DNA from: a virus
Length of the DNA stretch: 64,000 bases
Reading direction: 5' to 3' (one strand)
IMG/VR virus record: IMGVR_UViG_3300026290_000001
Shown: piece after piece, positions 7,693 through 58,335 of the stretch
Layout: each line of letters opens with the position of its first letter
Numbering within the stretch: position 1 is the stretch's first letter
Notes under the pieces: model-generated
Database searches by the model: none
What the model was told of the DNA's origin: nothing
The model's input: the letters and a program-made list of their open reading frames with translations, nothing else
Translations under genes and position numbers: made by a program

Positions 7693-7720
7693 AAATTAAT
7701 ATTAATAAAGGAGTTATAGT

Positions 7721-44236: not shown

Positions 44237-44953
44237 CTACTTCTTCAATTCTTTAAGTAAATATTCAACGGCATTATCAATTAAAACAGCACATTCTATT
44301 CGTGTAATACTACTATTAGGATCTAAAATCCCATCGCCTTTACCAGAAAGTATTTTCTTCTCATATAATCTATCTGCACTTTTTGCTCCCCAATGATCTT
44401 TAGGCAAGTCTTTAAAATACTTTGACATTTCTTCAATCACCTTACCTTTCAACAATTCCTTCTGAACTTCATTTTTAAATTTATCCCATGTCCAACCTAA
44501 ATGACCTGCTCTTATTAAACGTGGACAATTTTTTCCATTCCAATCCCAATGCTGTCTTAATGATTCTACATTTTTATTTTTAGATTTTAATAATTCTGCC
44601 ACAAGTAAAACTGCATTTTCTAATGTTTTTTGGTAATTCCCACTTTCACATATTTCAATTCCTATACTACGTCTATTACCAGCACCACTTCCTCCATCTC
44701 CTGCGTGCCAAGCATTTTCAAATAAAGGAATACATTCAATTGCTTGTTTTTCATCAATGGCAATATGATAACCTGTAGAAGATGTATTTGAAGGATTGGT
44801 TAAATAATCTCTTTCATTTCTTGCAGTAGATTTTGAATTCCCTGTGTTGTGAATAGTAATATATTCCCAATCCATTTTATATTTTGGACGTTTATTAGAA
44901 TTCATAGGAATGTGATCTATTACATAAGGAAAAGGTAAATTAAATTTACTCAT
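44237..44953 (-). CDS. endolysin: N-acetylmuramoyl-L-alanine amidase (Amidase_2/PGRP) with C-terminal SLH-like domain
   Basis: ITIHNTGN … HIAIDE … AWHAGDG … CPRL; C-terminal GKGDGILDPNSSITRIECAVL. Confidence 0.8.
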   Translation of the reverse strand: MSKFNLPFPYVIDHIPMNSNKRPKYKMDWEYITIHNTGNSKSTARNERDYLTNPSNTSSTGYHIAIDEKQAIECIPLFENAWHAGDGGSGAGNRRSIGIEICESGNYQKTLENAVLLVAELLKSKNKNVESLRQHWDWNGKNCPRLIRAGHLGWTWDKFKNEVQKELLKGKVIEEMSKYFKDLPKDHWGAKSADRLYEKKILSGKGDGILDPNSSITRIECAVLIDNAVEYLLKELKK

Positions 44954-46456: not shown

Positions 46457-47461
46457 TTATTGATAGAAATATTGAGTATAACTTTGTTGCTTGTGTTCAA
46501 ACGTTTGTTTTGCGTAAATGCCCGTAGTTTGAATATCATCATGACCTAAAAGTTCTTGTAATACCGACATTGGACAACCGTTATTTAGCATCAAGGTTGC
46601 GAAAGTATGTCTGAGCATATGGGGATGAGTTCTCTTGTCAAGCCCTGCACGTTTACCTATTGCTGCTATTTCTCGTTGAATACCTCGATTGCTTAATCTT
46701 CTATATTCCTGCCGTTCTGTTACAAATAATGCTTCACAGTCATCCTTACGACTTTCAAGATATTTTTTAAGGTAAATTGCAGCTCTAGCAGAATAGAATA
46801 CAATTCGCTCTTTGTTTCCTTTGCCTAATACCTTAATCGTCCGATTTGATTGTCCTATATCATCTTTATTTAGTGCCGATATTTCAGATAATCGACAACC
46901 TGTTGAATACATAATTTCAGTTAATGCTTTTTCTCGCAAAGTGAAACAACTTTCACGGAATAGTTCCAATTCTTCAATTGTTAATGCCTTTGCCATTGCT
47001 TTTCCCACTTTATAAGGTTTAATTCTAATCATCGGATTTTCTTCAATAATCTGTTCCTCACAAAGCCATTCAAAGAAACTGCGAAGTACTGAGCGAATTG
47101 TCTCAACAGTACTTTTAGCATTTACTGTTGGGTCGCTTTCCCGATCATCCAGATAGTTAATTATGTCCTGCTTGGTTATTTCATTTACTGGTTTTTCTTC
47201 GGTTCTATCGGTAAATATTTTAAGATGAAGTCGATAATTATCAATAGTTATTGGACTTAATCCTTGCCGTTTTTTATCCTTCAAAAACAGTTTTATGTTT
47301 TTCCGCAAATTATAATATTCTGGATCGCTGTTTTGTTTTATAACTCTGTATTCATCAAGAATGGAGGCTAATTGATTTTTAGCCTCCATCTTATTCATGC
47401 CTTTTTCTATGATTCCATCTACAATTTTAGCATATAGCTCATAATTGAGATTAGGGTGCAT
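46457..47461 (-). CDS. tyrosine site-specific recombinase (integrase), XerC/D-like
   Basis: Catalytic signature RLSE … HPHMLRHTFAT … LGHDDIQTTGIYA; 334 aa. Confidence 0.85.
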   Translation of the reverse strand: MHPNLNYELYAKIVDGIIEKGMNKMEAKNQLASILDEYRVIKQNSDPEYYNLRKNIKLFLKDKKRQGLSPITIDNYRLHLKIFTDRTEEKPVNEITKQDIINYLDDRESDPTVNAKSTVETIRSVLRSFFEWLCEEQIIEENPMIRIKPYKVGKAMAKALTIEELELFRESCFTLREKALTEIMYSTGCRLSEISALNKDDIGQSNRTIKVLGKGNKERIVFYSARAAIYLKKYLESRKDDCEALFVTERQEYRRLSNRGIQREIAAIGKRAGLDKRTHPHMLRHTFATLMLNNGCPMSVLQELLGHDDIQTTGIYAKQTFEHKQQSYTQYFYQ

Positions 47462-51813: not shown

Positions 51814-53031
51814 TTACTCTATCACCCCTTCATAATTAACCTTCCAAACATCATTAACTTTGCCATAGATGCCAATGATAGGTTTCCATTTTCCATTAAT
51901 TTTTACATAAACATTATTAATATTTTTCCAATTACCATTTACTTTATAAATCAGCGCAGTATTGTAAACTGAAATATCATTAATATTTAATAATAAATTA
52001 TCATTAGCATTGGTTTCTACAAATACATTTGTAGTTTCATGTATATTTATATTTAAACTATCATTAGAATTAATATCAACATTTTTGTGAATATAACTTT
52101 CATTAATAGACAATCTAATTGAATCAGTTATATTATTAGATGCAGTTAAATTATTTACATTATCCGTTGAAGAAATATTTAATGTATCACTAACATTTGG
52201 CAAGGCAGTAACATTTGCATTGTCAGCACAATAAATATTAATAGCATCATTTTTATTAAACTCATTAATAGTTAAATCTATGCCATTAATATCTAAATTT
52301 TCAGATGTGCTAATATCTACCAATATATTTTTGGTTTCATTTACACCTATATTTAAATTATCACCAGTATTTATATTAGTAATTAATTGACTTTCTTCGG
52401 TAATATCTAAATATAAATTGTTTTCAATATCCTTGGATAATACTAATAAAGAATCTTCTTGTAGATTGATATCTAAAGAATCTTCTAGGTTTAAAGAAAT
52501 ATATGATGATTCATCTATTGTTAAATTAATATCATCTTCTACTTCAATGTTTTTATCTAAATTATTAGTTTCACTTAATGATAAATCAAGATCGTCATAA
52601 GTTTTTATATTGTAAGCATCAGGAGAATCCCATATAGATAATTCTTGTATATTTATAGACAAAGAATCATTAACATTTATATTTACATTTAATGATTGCG
52701 AATCACTTACAGTTAAGTTAAGTGCATCTTGAAGTGTATTAGTTACTTCTAAATCCGAAACATCATTTAGTGTAATTATAGGCGGGTCAGTACCTGAAGC
52801 ATTTACAAGCCTTTCACTTTCCTCTACAGATGTAATAATTAAATTGTCAGAAACACTAAAAGTCCAAATTTTATTACTTTCTTCAGTTATAGTTATTGTT
52901 AATTCATCATGTACATTTATTTCTATAACTGCTGATTCTGTAATATTTAGTGTTAATTCATCCGAAGAGGAAGATGATATATCGTTTAATGTGTTGAAAG
53001 ATGTTTGGTTAAAACGTCCTTGATTAAACAA
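51814..53031 (-). CDS. repeat-rich fibrous structural protein
   Basis: Degenerate ~12-aa repeats (e.g. DSLSINIQE, DSLDINLQE, DNLNIGVNE); acidic, Asn/Leu/Ile-rich. Confidence 0.45.
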   Translation of the reverse strand: MFNQGRFNQTSFNTLNDISSSSSDELTLNITESAVIEINVHDELTITITEESNKIWTFSVSDNLIITSVEESERLVNASGTDPPIITLNDVSDLEVTNTLQDALNLTVSDSQSLNVNINVNDSLSINIQELSIWDSPDAYNIKTYDDLDLSLSETNNLDKNIEVEDDINLTIDESSYISLNLEDSLDINLQEDSLLVLSKDIENNLYLDITEESQLITNINTGDNLNIGVNETKNILVDISTSENLDINGIDLTINEFNKNDAINIYCADNANVTALPNVSDTLNISSTDNVNNLTASNNITDSIRLSINESYIHKNVDINSNDSLNINIHETTNVFVETNANDNLLLNINDISVYNTALIYKVNGNWKNINNVYVKINGKWKPIIGIYGKVNDVWKVNYEGVIE

Positions 53032-53779: not shown

Positions 53780-54286
53780 TTATTCTTGATAGACGAACCA
53801 AATGTCCCCATCCTCACCGTCTTCATTACTAGGTTGTACAGTAGAAAATATAAAATGGTGTGCAGAAGTTTGTATTATATCTTCAAGTGTTTCTTTAATA
53901 TCATAAGAACCACTACCATTAGATTGAAAACTACTATAAATCCTACTTGCGGGTATATAAACTCCACCACTACCATAAAAAGAAAATTGTAATATACTTC
54001 CACTTACATCAGGATGAAAATAAACGTATCCATATACATAATCTACTTTATATGTACCAATTTTACTTTCTGTGTCTAATGTAGGAAAACCATCAACAAT
54101 TTCATACCACTGGTAAGTTTCCAATCCAAAATTACCCATGACCTGAACTTTATTTTGCCTATGCGGAATTTCTGATAATATTACTAATCCATTTATTATT
54201 TTTTTATATTCACTTAATGAAACTAAAGGTTGCTCATTATTACCTCTTCGTATTGAAATAAAAGGATCATAAAAAATTTGATTCAA
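53780..54286 (-). CDS. hypothetical structural protein
   Basis: 168-aa ORF with GGAGGTGA RBS. Confidence 0.45.
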   Translation of the reverse strand: MNQIFYDPFISIRRGNNEQPLVSLSEYKKIINGLVILSEIPHRQNKVQVMGNFGLETYQWYEIVDGFPTLDTESKIGTYKVDYVYGYVYFHPDVSGSILQFSFYGSGGVYIPASRIYSSFQSNGSGSYDIKETLEDIIQTSAHHFIFSTVQPSNEDGEDGDIWFVYQE

Positions 54287-54448
54287 AATTTATCACCTCC
54301 AACCTAATTTTTCAAAAAATAGAAAAATCAAAAATGTTCAAAAATTTATCTTCTGTTTTCTCTTGTTTTCTTCCATTTACTCTGTTTTTCAAGCACAAAA
54401 TTTGAATAAAAGGAATATTTTATTGTTGAGCCAAGAACACTCGTGACT

Positions 54449-55741
54449 TCAGTCATGAGATGAATTGGCTCTGTTCTGTTCATATATAATCCATGATTTT
54501 CTTGCATTAATTCTTTGCATGTTAGATATTTTCGGTGTCTTCATACCTCTGGGTGCATTACTAAAATCTATTTTTTCACCATCTATACCCATAAGAATGG
54601 CATAACCCGTAGACATTCTACCTTTAATAAAATATTCATTACCTATATACCTTACTTTATCAAACTTCCTAAATCCTTCTATTTTACCTGTAGGTATCTT
54701 CTGATGACTTCTTACTCCTTTTGCCTGTTGGTAATCGCCTTTAGGGATACACTTTTTTAATACAGCTTTTTCAGTTTTAAAGCTTACATCAATTAACCCT
54801 ATATCTTCAATATTATTTAAACAGGCAATAGCTACAGCATCGTAGTAATGCTCTTTTGGTAATCCCATTAGCTGTCTATGTTCTTTGGTAATAAATCCAA
54901 AGGTTTCTTTTGCATTTGGTAGCTGTCTTAATAATTGTTGTCTTATACTATTCATCTGTGTTGTGTGTTTTAATTGTCCTTTAATTTTACCATTCTTCTT
55001 TAATTTAATTCCTCCTTTGTGCAAACTATTATGACAAGTTTTACAAAGTGTAATTAAATTTTCTGCATCATCTGAGCCACCATTTTTTCTAAAAACTATA
55101 TGATGTACCTCTAATCTGCTGTCTTTACTTTTTCCTTTGCAATACTGGCAAATATATTTATCTCTACTTAATACATAAGCTTTAGTATTAGCAAATCCAT
55201 AATTAGTTCCTTTTTGATAAAGCCATTTATTACTTAATACTGCTGGATTTTTTAAAGCATGTGGGTCAAATGTTGCTGTTTCTATTATTATATTTGTAAT
55301 GGGCATTATTGATTTTGCAAAATCAATTTCTTTTAAGTGTGAATTAATTTTACTTGTCATTGTAGGAGAAAATCTATCTTTTTTAATGCTGTTTTTCCTA
55401 TTATTAAATCTAGGTTCCCTATATCTAGTTTTCCTATTCCTTCTAGTTCTCCTATATTTAGCTCTTTTGTCCATTTTGTCAGATATATCATTTCTAATTT
55501 CTACTTCTGATATATAATACACTTCATTTTCGTCATTTGCTACTGCACTTCCTATTTTACTACTACCAGTATCAATTCCTAAAGTTAAATCTTGTGTATA
55601 GTCTGTAGCATGATATAGTAATTTAATTGTAAATGGAGTTCTTCTTATGCATTTTGCTTTACCATCTTTTAACAATAATCTTGCTATTGCTGGTTTACAA
55701 GGCATTAAAGGACTCCCATCTTCATTAATTACATAAACCAT
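54449..55741 (-). CDS. iscB: IscB, OMEGA-family RNA-guided endonuclease (PLMP domain, split RuvC, HNH)
   Basis: PLMP (EDGSPLMPCKPAIARLLLKDGKAK); RuvC-I LGIDTGSSKIGSAV; RuvC-II IIIETATFD; HNH CQYCKG…HHIVFRKNGGSDDAENLITLCKTCH; RuvC-III PKEHYYDAVAIAC; 430 aa; RBS AAAGGA. Confidence 0.8.
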   Translation of the reverse strand: MVYVINEDGSPLMPCKPAIARLLLKDGKAKCIRRTPFTIKLLYHATDYTQDLTLGIDTGSSKIGSAVANDENEVYYISEVEIRNDISDKMDKRAKYRRTRRNRKTRYREPRFNNRKNSIKKDRFSPTMTSKINSHLKEIDFAKSIMPITNIIIETATFDPHALKNPAVLSNKWLYQKGTNYGFANTKAYVLSRDKYICQYCKGKSKDSRLEVHHIVFRKNGGSDDAENLITLCKTCHNSLHKGGIKLKKNGKIKGQLKHTTQMNSIRQQLLRQLPNAKETFGFITKEHRQLMGLPKEHYYDAVAIACLNNIEDIGLIDVSFKTEKAVLKKCIPKGDYQQAKGVRSHQKIPTGKIEGFRKFDKVRYIGNEYFIKGRMSTGYAILMGIDGEKIDFSNAPRGMKTPKISNMQRINARKSWIIYEQNRANSSHD

Positions 55742-56025
55742 AAAATCAAATCCTTTCGGATAAATACTCTGCTTAAAAGCAGGTTATGCGTATCTATATA
55801 CTATTACCATATATAGAATTCGTCCTCATCTCGACAATGATAAAATAGCTTATATGTATATCACACCGAGCCTTACCCTCCAACTCTACTTAGTGATATA
55901 CGATAGAGCAATGGTCTGATGCGTCAACCAAAGGTATCATAACTATTCTATCGTAGTATAAATTTCTCTATACTAAGTCTGGTGAACTTAGACTTTAGAA
56001 GCCTCCGACTTTAGTCGGGGGTAGT
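55742..56025 (-). ncRNA. candidate omegaRNA of the IscB locus
   Basis: ~280-nt non-coding stretch directly 5' of iscB; GC well above surroundings; nested inverted repeats (GTGAACT…CCGACTTTAGTCGG…AGTTCAC at 55982-56030; GTATATCAC/GTGATATAC; CTGCTTAAAAGCAG). Confidence 0.4.
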
Positions 56026-56271
56026 TCACTCTATTTCAGGATTGATAGATAAATCATCTTTGCTTGTACTATTTACATTAGATAAATTATCTTCATTGGA
56101 CAAATCATCATTAATAATTTGACTTAATTCGTCTATTTTAGAACTTAATTTGATAATCTCTATCTGATACATATTATTTTGTAAACATAAAGTGACTACA
56201 TCTAAGGGCAAATTACTATTGTTTATTAACTCTGCCAGTTTAATATTAAAATCACTTATAATAAAAATCAC
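56026..56271 (-). CDS. hypothetical protein
   Basis: 81-aa ORF; overlapping plus-strand ORF 56192..56539 is hydrophobic low-complexity and less plausible. Confidence 0.35.
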   Translation of the reverse strand: MIFIISDFNIKLAELINNSNLPLDVVTLCLQNNMYQIEIIKLSSKIDELSQIINDDLSNEDNLSNVNSTSKDDLSINPEIE

Positions 56272-56328
56272 TTCCTTTATATTATTTTTTTATCTTATTA
56301 TATTGTTATTTTTTATCTTACTATCTTG

Positions 56329-56649
56329 CTATATTGTTATCTGCGCTTTTATTTCAATCCTACAAGTGTTATTAAAAATATCTTTGTTAATATTTATTAC
56401 TTTTCCATCTAATAATCTATTTATCTCATTTTCGTATTTATCAATAAAAACCACATCGATTTTATTATCTAGATTTAATTCTAAAAAACTACAAACATCT
56501 GAACTTTTATTTGTTGGGATTTGCCCTATAAATCTGTGATAATAAATATTTTCCATTTCATGATAATAAACATCTAAAGTTCCTTGTTGAAAATCGTCTG
56601 AATAGATATGGTTGTCTAGGCAATTAAATTTTATTTTTAATTTCATCAC
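56329..56649 (-). CDS. hypothetical protein
   Basis: 106-aa ORF with balanced composition. Confidence 0.45.
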   Translation of the reverse strand: MMKLKIKFNCLDNHIYSDDFQQGTLDVYYHEMENIYYHRFIGQIPTNKSSDVCSFLELNLDNKIDVVFIDKYENEINRLLDGKVININKDIFNNTCRIEIKAQITI

Positions 56650-57735: not shown

Positions 57736-58335
57736 ATGAAAGGATGTATAATAATGAAAATTAAAAACTTATCTTATCTGTTTATTGGTTTGCTAGTTGG
57801 GTGTTTATTTCCCATTCAATCTTTATTTGCCGAACAACCTATTACATTAATTATCAATGGTAAAACAATTACTAATGCTTCACCACAAATAGTTTCAGAT
57901 AGAACGTATGTACCTTTGAGGGTAATATCCGAAGAATTAGGTGCAACAGTTGAATGGGACGGAGTAAATAGGGTAGTTAGGGTTAATAGTGGGGATGGAC
58001 AAAAAATTGAAAAGATTAATCAAAATCAAACTCAAAACAATAATGATAATAGTAATGTGGAGAGCAACCCTAGAGATAATATCAATTATATTAGTAGTGA
58101 TGATATGGAAAAATATTACGAAAGAGATACAAATAAAGGTTTTGTAAAAAATCGTTGGGTAGATGGTAAATATTTTATTGACTATGATAGAAAAATTACA
58201 CGTTTTGAAGATTATGAATATTATTATGATAGAGAAAGAGATATATTTTATTGGGCAGATTATAAGGCAATTTTAATCTTTGGAGAAACAATAAAAGATT
58301 ATCCTAAATATAAATTTAACCAAATACAGCAGTAG
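57736..58335 (+). CDS. secreted/lipoprotein with copper-amine-oxidase-N-terminal-like domain, opposite strand to the tail module (moron-like)
   Basis: Signal peptide with lipobox-like LLVGC; domain NGKTITNASPQIVSDRTYVPLRVISEELGATVEWDGVNRVVRV. Confidence 0.55.
   Translation: MKGCIIMKIKNLSYLFIGLLVGCLFPIQSLFAEQPITLIINGKTITNASPQIVSDRTYVPLRVISEELGATVEWDGVNRVVRVNSGDGQKIEKINQNQTQNNNDNSNVESNPRDNINYISSDDMEKYYERDTNKGFVKNRWVDGKYFIDYDRKITRFEDYEYYYDRERDIFYWADYKAILIFGETIKDYPKYKFNQIQQ

Follow-up and report, generated by a model that had tools for sequence, protein, structure and literature searches.

It is a matter of interest what an RNA-guided nuclease carried by an insertion sequence might do in the genome of a phage. 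The question is raised by an open reading frame (ORF) on the minus strand of a 64,000-nt stretch of viral DNA (IMG/VR record IMGVR_UViG_3300026290_000001; this whole stretch is referred to as the window), which lies at positions 54449–55741 among phage tail genes and had been assigned to IscB in a first-pass annotation made from the sequence. IscB is a compact ancestor of Cas9 and is under development as a genome editor; to our knowledge, what it does in nature has been established for bacterial chromosomes and not for viruses. The results reported here indicate that the gene very probably forms part of a 1,606-bp non-autonomous insertion sequence (IS) that carries IscB together with its guide RNA (omegaRNA), resides in the tail region of a phage, and is predicted to home at unoccupied sites.

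The 430-aa gene product is a predicted IscB with intact catalytic residues

The iscB coding sequence (54449–55741, minus strand) starts with ATG and is translated into 430 aa; each of the motifs quoted in the first-pass annotation was found in the translation, well beyond what chance would give. The protein matched the NCBIfam equivalog model NF040563 (RNA-guided endonuclease IscB) with 351.4 bits (cutoff 175, aa 2–305). Solved IscB structures (7utn, 7xht, and others) were matched by phmmer with E values of 1e-42 to 1e-43 (OgeuIscB, 1e-43), and a family profile matched the solved IscBs with E = 1e-53. In the phmmer alignment, the segments LGIDTGS, IIIETATF, VHHIVFRKNGGS, and PKEHYYDAVAIAC of the window IscB pair with the corresponding motifs of OgeuIscB.

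Pfam RRXRR (PF14239, 184 bits) covers aa 2–178 (55208–55738, minus strand) and comprises the PLMP domain, RuvC-I with D57, an arginine-rich bridge helix, and RuvC-II with E154. The HNH nuclease domain (Pfam HNH, 53 bits; aa 198–242, 55016–55150, minus strand) shows the pattern CxxC...HH...N...CxxC H and sits between RuvC-II and RuvC-III of the split RuvC domain. RuvC-III (H298, D301) stands directly before a C-terminal domain that is presumed to interact with the target-adjacent motif (TAM; aa 309–430, 54452–54817, minus strand). The two Pfam domains and the OgeuIscB alignment agree with the full IscB domain order that had been proposed earlier. The PLMP motif corresponds to aa 11–14, of which L12, M13, and P14 are invariant in an alignment of 41 family sequences; also invariant are D57, E154, H213/H214, N228, H298, D301, and the four zinc-knuckle cysteines of the HNH domain (C198/C201/C233/C236). 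D57, E154, H298, and D301 align to the RuvC-I, -II, and -III motifs of OgeuIscB. By a hand count on the alignment, the catalytic residues D57, E154, H214, H298, and D301 of the window protein correspond to D61, E193, H247, H340, and D343 of OgeuIscB, which we take to be catalytic there. The profile searches placed the protein nowhere among non-RuvC HNH enzymes, and the catalytic residues at the RuvC-I, -II, and -III positions are all kept. We conclude that 54449–55741 is predicted to encode a genuine IscB that retains the catalytic residues of both RuvC and HNH.

An assignment to type II CRISPR-Cas9, or to a CRISPR-associated IscB, was rejected: the Cas9d model NF049971 scored 36 bits with the window protein (cutoff 375), no repeat array was detected within 44–64 kb of the window, and 430 aa are too few to accommodate a recognition (REC) lobe.

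The protein is 66 aa shorter than OgeuIscB (496 aa), with about 40 aa of the deficit falling between the arginine-rich helix and RuvC-II (query residue 104 aligns to residue 144 of the OgeuIscB chain) and about 25 aa after RuvC-III. The first-pass annotation had described the protein as shorter than typical IscBs at the C terminus, which applies to these 25 aa; most of the deficit lies elsewhere, however, and lengths of 410–462 aa are normal in the clade. The size of 430 aa is counted as a trait of the clade and not as a truncation because the 120 closest family clusters all span 410–462 aa, most of them 417–430 aa. The C-terminal 122 aa are conserved in the clade and evolve under purifying selection, with ratios of nonsynonymous to synonymous substitution rates (dN/dS) of 0.09–0.16 in informative pairs.

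A predicted HEARO-type omegaRNA with its guide precedes iscB

Directly upstream of iscB and on the same strand is a predicted omegaRNA gene of the full HEARO type. The scaffold (Rfam HEARO, RF02033; 55819–56029, minus strand) matches model positions 1–211, the full length, with 121.7 bits (gathering score 83, E = 1e-24), and it is the sole Rfam family in the whole window, present in a single copy. HEARO RNA is the omegaRNA of IscB (Meers et al. 2023, bioRxiv 10.1101/2023.03.14.532601; PMC13565253), and the same RNA precedes every related iscB that was fetched. Model RF02033 lacks the downstream structural elements (Meers et al. 2023). The Rfam model ends 77 nt before the iscB start codon. This interval (55742–55818, minus strand) comprises a predicted 3′ extension of the omegaRNA with two more conserved hairpins and then the iscB ribosome-binding site. 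The RNAalifold consensus of eight loci contains 80 pairs, 43 of them with compensatory changes, and includes both 3′ hairpins. The last hairpin (55769–55782) is followed by a T-rich run and forms a terminator-like site (55782–55769).

The last 16 nt of the flanking DNA, directly 5′ of the HEARO scaffold (56030–56045, minus strand), represent the putative guide segment TCAATCCTGAAATAGA, its length being adopted from published IscB work. The same nucleotides double as the 3′ end of the coding sequence of the upstream host-phage gene, ORF81. Within the window the guide matches itself only, and the 44 matches of the 16-mer in IMG/VR were all chance matches except those to the same phage. In every related locus the guide is a different one.

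The element has sharp ends and abuts an ATAAAA motif

The ends of the element were located by comparison with related loci, which are given here by L numbers. In six of them (L006, L007, L010, L011, L082, L083), the similarity of the upstream regions starts exactly at GTGAACTACC, corresponding to window position 56029, and the DNA 5′ of GTGAACTACC is unrelated between these relatives. At the far end, relatives with 90–95% identity remain similar for about 25 nt beyond the iscB stop codon and then diverge at a common ATAAA[A/G]. The whole mobile element, consisting of the omegaRNA scaffold, iscB, and a short far-end tail, thus extends over 54424–56029 (minus strand, 1,606 bp). It has neither terminal inverted repeats nor a target-site duplication or footprint, and its boundary is ambiguous by 1 nt (an A). 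A second GTGAACTACC occurs in L007 at 648–657, on the upstream side of the true element end and 430 nt away from it; it belongs to no omegaRNA and probably represents a chance 10-mer.

TnpA transposase and nuclease share one TAM, and the omegaRNA is bounded by the right end (RE) of the transposon (Meers et al. 2023). In this orientation, the window element has its RE on the omegaRNA side, with ATAAAA flanking the left end (LE). The TAM-side end (LE; 54424–54471, plus strand) contains a subterminal imperfect hairpin (CTCGTGACT..AGTCATGAG), which overlaps the iscB stop codon. Its predicted DNA fold has −11.5 kcal/mol (z = −4.06), and none of 200 shuffled sequences folded as well. The hairpin at the opposite end has an 8-bp stem, and a GACT-NAAG-TC core is common to both ends.

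The flanking DNA directly outside the LE reads ATAAAA (54418–54423, minus strand), a motif that pre-exists in alleles lacking the element. The far end adjoins ATAAAN (ATAAA[A/G/T]) in each of the nine related copies in which it could be located. ATAAAA lies 3′ of the guide match, at the position of an IscB TAM, and is the probable target-adjacent (transposon-adjacent) motif of the element. The first-pass annotation had considered that a short C terminus may alter TAM recognition; the putative motif instead fits the TAM of OgeuIscB, given as NWRRNA in PMC12660989, and does not depart from it.

By its organization, 54424–56029 is assigned to the non-autonomous ISs of the IS200/IS605 family (ISC type), carrying an omegaRNA gene and iscB as its predicted cargo.

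Empty sites show that the insertion left the ORF81 protein unchanged

Alleles without the element were obtained by two routes. Contigs L080 and L081 were reached via homologues of the downstream YomF-like protein in a large protein collection, and L155 and L156 were found with a degenerate junction pattern in metagenomes of the Joint Genome Institute (JGI); a search of IMG/VR with the two flanking proteins returned the same phage only. The four contigs represent three kinds and are about 91% identical to the element-removed window over 1.4–2.2 kb. They join ...GAAATAGA or ...GAAGCAGT straight to ATAAAATATTCC. Because the empty alleles join both flanks directly, the element corresponds to 54424–56029 without a duplication. 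At the nucleotide level, the occupied junction of the window reads ...ATCAATCCTGAAATAGA, then the element (GTGAAC...CTCAACA), then ATAAAATATTCC..., and in the empty allele L155 ...ATCAATCCTGAAATAGA is followed immediately by ATAAAATATTCC.... The guide TCAATCCTGAAATAGA matches the empty allele L155 in 16 of 16 positions, with ATAAAA directly 3′ of the match; there are five mismatches in L156 and six in L080.

ORF81 (56026–56271, minus strand) has its last codon and its stop (GA/G TGA) completed by the terminus of the element. In L155 the gene ends ...ATA GAA TAA, in the window ...ATA GAG TGA, and both versions encode ...PEIE followed by the stop. The insertion is silent for the ORF81 protein, as G-TGA-AC of the element replaces A-TAA-AA of the target in frame. 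The element terminus also supplies the in-frame stop of the upstream gene in two further copies, so that stop swaps are found at 56026–56031 (minus strand) of the window, at 2010–2015 of L082 behind a 384-aa gene, and at 7715–7720 of L158 behind a gene for a 782-aa ribonucleotide reductase; L006 probably has one as well. In the window, 21 of 75 genes end in a site suited to such a swap, and these sites make up 11.5% of the tolerated ATAAA sites. For three of nine copies landing on a stop codon P was 0.075, and for four of nine P was 0.014, which is no more than suggestive of a modest enrichment above chance. If true, landing on stop codons would fit expression of the omegaRNA by read-through and a bias in co-orientation with the upstream gene. 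IscB elements are indeed biased to share the orientation of the gene upstream (Meers et al. 2023).

Two classes of ORF81 C termini were observed (window 56030–56090), ...SINPEIE in the window and L155 and ...STSPEAV or ...STSPETV in L080 and L156. The occupied allele differs from L080 by 17 mismatches in the 61 nt 5′ of the junction, compared with three in the preceding 150 nt. These junction mismatches could reflect allelic mosaicism, co-conversion, or target escape, and the two allele classes explain them as well as selection does. Escape from IscB cutting was set aside as an unsupported explanation in view of the two classes, the tiny sample, and the existence of the perfectly matching L155.

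Related copies occur in other phages, some with a TnpA gene

Genes 72–95% identical to the window iscB were found in other phage-like contigs of IMG/VR and of the protein collection. Several reside in unrelated flanks, with identities of 95% (L082), 90% (L006), 90% (L008), and 84% (L083). The copy of L082 adjoins primase-like genes and has a different guide, which points to recent movement. The contexts of the 72–95% clade were phage-like in 11 of 11 cases, six of which come from the viral database IMG/VR, so this count is biased. Pairwise dN/dS values of iscB among seven phage-borne copies were 0.07–0.20.

Relatives of 74–80% identity carry a gene for an IS200-type Y1 TnpA right after iscB; L011 has it at full length (Pfam Y1_Tnp, 119 bits), L007 in truncated form, and L157 as a fragment. 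The family therefore appears to include autonomous elements. In L011 (5917–7273 and 7234–7635), a 75%-identical iscB is frameshifted into two ORFs and followed by an intact 133-aa Y1 TnpA. The locus directly precedes the gene for a phage tape measure protein and resembles an autonomous element whose nuclease is decaying. The window iscB is intact, unlike the frameshifted copy. About 1.5% of iscB genes lie near tnpA (Meers et al. 2023), and a state without TnpA can for this reason be regarded as normal. The sharp ends, the end hairpins, the empty sites, and the relatives with TnpA bear out the earlier proposal of a non-autonomous IS200/IS605-type passenger amid phage structural genes.

Proposed RNA-guided homing and alternative explanations

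The following course of events, drawn from published work on IscB and TnpB, would account for the locus. The omegaRNA would be made by read-through from the co-oriented late tail operon. The IscB–omegaRNA complex would recognize TCAATCCTGAAATAGA together with the ATAAAA TAM in genome copies of the phage that lack the element, and these could be either excision products of a TnpA acting in trans or the genomes of a co-resident or co-infecting relative. HNH and RuvC would cut both strands, and recombination with occupied genomes would copy the element back (restorative or non-restorative homing). The occupied site would be spared, as it presents GTGAAC in place of the TAM. Moves to new sites would need a TnpA provided in trans by the host or by another element.

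A more far-reaching version can be put forward tentatively, being possible though hardly the expected outcome: a phage-adapted IscB–omegaRNA lineage may home under RNA guidance, or act as a gene drive, among phages that co-replicate or co-infect, landing on stop codons (TAA to TGA) such that the host protein stays intact and the omegaRNA is transcribed by read-through. During replication, phage DNA is present in many copies and recombines readily, so that the phage case resembles the TnpB gene drive in plasmids (see below) and "non-restorative homing", an idea put forward by a 2026 review (PMC13565253). In the literature, no paper was found that shows IscB homing or an IscB gene drive for phages.

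Several results weigh against homing of an active element. The guide and TAM are perfectly matched by the empty allele L155, which persists in nature; homing must therefore be incomplete, absent, or lacking opportunity. The identical IscB was found on 13 public contigs, the longest of 135 and 138 kb, always in the same context, and all 13 belong to one clonal lineage (at least 99.97% identity over 16 kb). As the occupied contigs are clonal and the empty relatives are about 91% identical, it is at best hypothetical that homing has carried the element into diverged backgrounds. A promoter scan stayed at the level of chance, with 19 sites versus 18.3 expected. In agreement with the earlier remark that no TnpA is nearby, a tblastn search with a relative's TnpA found none anywhere in the 64-kb window, which covers about half of the phage. 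With regard to the protein, the profile of the C-terminal domain matched no Protein Data Bank (PDB) chain at E ≤ 10, and the full-length profile likewise left the last 120 aa unaligned to any solved chain, similarity ending at about residue 310. AlphaFold2 (AF2) models reached predicted local distance difference test (pLDDT) values of 45 (full length, 41-sequence alignment) and 44 (C-terminal domain alone, 13 sequences), both unusable; in the underlying alignments, every sequence was at least 62% identical to the query.

Among the alternatives, a domesticated nuclease, also mentioned in the first-pass annotation, fares best and is nevertheless unlikely. The phage would keep an IscB–omegaRNA with a fixed guide to its own advantage, for instance to cut competing related phages or prophages whose ORF81 end is unoccupied (interference competition), and upkeep of the transposon would be secondary. 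Such a role would suit the purifying selection on iscB, the window without TnpA, and an element that is fixed and identical in 13 of 13 contigs of the lineage, and a perfect target is indeed held by related phages (L155); phage homing endonucleases are known to mediate competition between co-infecting phages (PMC11620839). The guide, however, is merely flanking sequence, as in any IscB element of the IS605 family, and fits the empty site of the element itself; the transposon has kept both ends and their hairpins intact, the phages of about 91% identity are unoccupied, and close copies have other guides, the 95%-identical one in L082 at another site indicating recent mobility. Nor is the lack of TnpA distinctive, given that proximity to tnpA is rare (about 1.5%) for iscB genes in any genome. 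The proposal moreover overlaps with homing and does not exclude it.

We consider it quite improbable that the element is a stranded relic, in which case a single transposition from the host chromosome into a prophage would have left a neutral insertion with no TnpA and a nuclease with no current role. The silent insertion at ORF81, the clonality of the occupied lineage, the coexistence of a cleavable empty allele in metagenomes, and the failure to find TnpA in the window speak for a relic. Against this stand the intact ORF with all catalytic residues, the omegaRNA that scores at full length, and dN/dS values of 0.2 versus the 95% relative and about 0.1 versus others, which argue that the clade was kept functional while moving among phage genomes; copies that have decayed look different, as the frameshifted iscB of L011 illustrates.

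The first-pass annotation had already held that the protein is not an ordinary phage HNH endonuclease, and a protein-guided homing or packaging enzyme of this kind is almost certainly the wrong assignment: phrog_119 (aa 1–307) and phrog_2214 (aa 2–377) are annotated as "HNH endonuclease" and homologues in phage records as the same or as hypothetical, but both matches run beyond the HNH over the IscB N terminus and core, the HNH takes up aa 198–242 only, within a split RuvC and accompanied by a PLMP N terminus and an arginine-rich helix, the IscB equivalog cutoff is exceeded twofold, and HEARO RNA precedes both this gene and the "HNH endonuclease" gene of phage c-st, so that the labels represent annotation lag.

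Homing by the predicted IscB–omegaRNA element is thus retained as the preferred explanation.

Comparison with known systems

IscB in a virus is already known, and the locus clearly exemplifies an established system. Of the fragments that encode HEARO, more than 16% come from viruses or prophages (Goltsman et al. 2022, PMC9755519), and Staphylococcus Silviavirus phages were noted in 2025 to contain HEARO (PMC13346280). Among 50,697 deposited phage records, 30 contain an IscB homologue; such units are routinely mislabelled "HNH endonuclease" in phage databases.

With OgeuIscB–omegaRNA (7utn, 7xht, 8csz) the window system shares the order of PLMP, RuvC-I, bridge helix, RuvC-II, HNH, RuvC-III, and C-terminal domain, the aligned catalytic residues, a HEARO-type omegaRNA with a 5′ guide, and a TAM 3′ of the target; it differs by the shorter protein, by being phage-borne, and in that it is known here from sequence alone. 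In Geobacillus stearothermophilus, the ISGst-type IscB elements, which are non-autonomous and belong to the IS605 family (Meers et al. 2023), likewise have the omegaRNA upstream of iscB, are bounded by an RE, lack tnpA, abut an AT-rich TAM at the other end, carry a guide that targets the donor joint (the empty site), and share the orientation of the upstream gene. They are chromosomal, occur in high copy number, and have an identified cognate TnpA, whereas the window copy is single and resides in a phage.

Closer in setting are Clostridium phage c-st (CST143) and Clostridioides phage pCD1602_4, both large phages of low-GC Clostridia with an IscB homologue after a HEARO RNA (140 and 124 bits, respectively). 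Their homologues differ from the window IscB in identity (about 40–42%), in C-terminal regions that remain unaligned (query coverage 74–76%), and in their neighbourhoods. In c-st (L159, NC_007581, record 131514–137494), the "HNH endonuclease" CST143 is an IscB and is followed by a truncated TnpA (CST142). A RAGATH-18 RNA (64 bits) occurs in the same region right behind CST146, an annotated transposase gene, with ISCbt4-a adjacent; RAGATH-18 is the kind of guide RNA used by IS607-type TnpB nucleases. In pCD1602_4 (L160), which is unannotated, the IscB match is preceded by a HEARO RNA.

Two further systems are comparable in mechanism. Free-standing homing endonucleases of the T4 Seg/Mob type (PMC13565253) resemble the window element in the predicted cutting of the element-less allele and in spread by recombinational repair; they rely on protein contacts and have neither RuvC nor a guide RNA, so that the likeness is one of mechanism and not of family. 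In the TnpB-driven IS gene drive of multicopy plasmids (PMC11870625), an OMEGA nuclease similarly biases IS inheritance among co-resident replicon copies; that system uses TnpB, a 3′ guide, a 5′ TAM, and plasmids, in contrast to IscB in a phage, seen here from its sequence.

Nothing known about how IscB works is changed by the locus. What it adds is a natural set of occupied, naive, and diverged alleles together with the geometry of the stop-codon swap. Element, guide, TAM, a perfect empty target, and two diverged empty alleles can all be recovered from public metagenomes, and because this allele set is complete, RNA-guided homing between phages is directly testable. The locus also yields an IscB of 430 aa for which genetic comparison suggests ATAAAN as the TAM.

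Phage context of the element

The window represents about half of a large phage with a GC content of about 27%; the deposited-phage collection contained no close DNA relative of it. Upstream of the element and on the same strand, PHROGs matches identified a tape measure protein, Dit, and a 957-aa minor tail protein, and downstream lies a host-phage gene for a 168-aa protein with a YomF_N domain (phrog_11315; 53780–54286, minus strand), in line with the tail-module setting described in the first-pass annotation. Elsewhere in the window are genes for PolIII-alpha, RecD2, an NAD-dependent ligase, RecJ, NrdD, a tyrosine recombinase, and an amidase with an SLH domain. The source is probably an SPbeta-like phage of about 135–138 kb that infects a low-GC, S-layer-bearing host of the Bacillota.

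The amidase is an endolysin with Amidase_2 and SLH domains (44237–44953, minus strand), and the tyrosine recombinase is encoded at 46457–47461 (minus strand); the two suggest a temperate or plasmid-prophage lifestyle and an S-layer host (Bacillota). The coding strand switches near 44 kb. Just upstream of ORF81, the intergenic region between it and a 106-aa ORF contains 2.9 copies of a 23-nt unit (56277–56342), which could be regulatory or operator-like. The tail module is otherwise encoded on the minus strand, but a moron-like gene within it (57736–58335, plus strand) runs the other way and encodes a 199-aa protein with a Cu_amine_oxidN1 domain and, as judged by eye, a hydrophobic, signal-peptide-like N terminus. 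The segment 48001–49000 has a GC content of 0.40, compared with about 0.27 for the window, and may have been recently acquired; it overlaps two ORFs, one of 383 aa on the minus strand, which has no Pfam match, and one of 199 aa on the plus strand. Downstream of the tail genes, a 405-aa ORF (51814–53031, minus strand) with no PHROG match contains many degenerate repeats of the form D/N-x-L-x-I-N-I-x-E and may encode a repeat-rich fibre or decoration protein.

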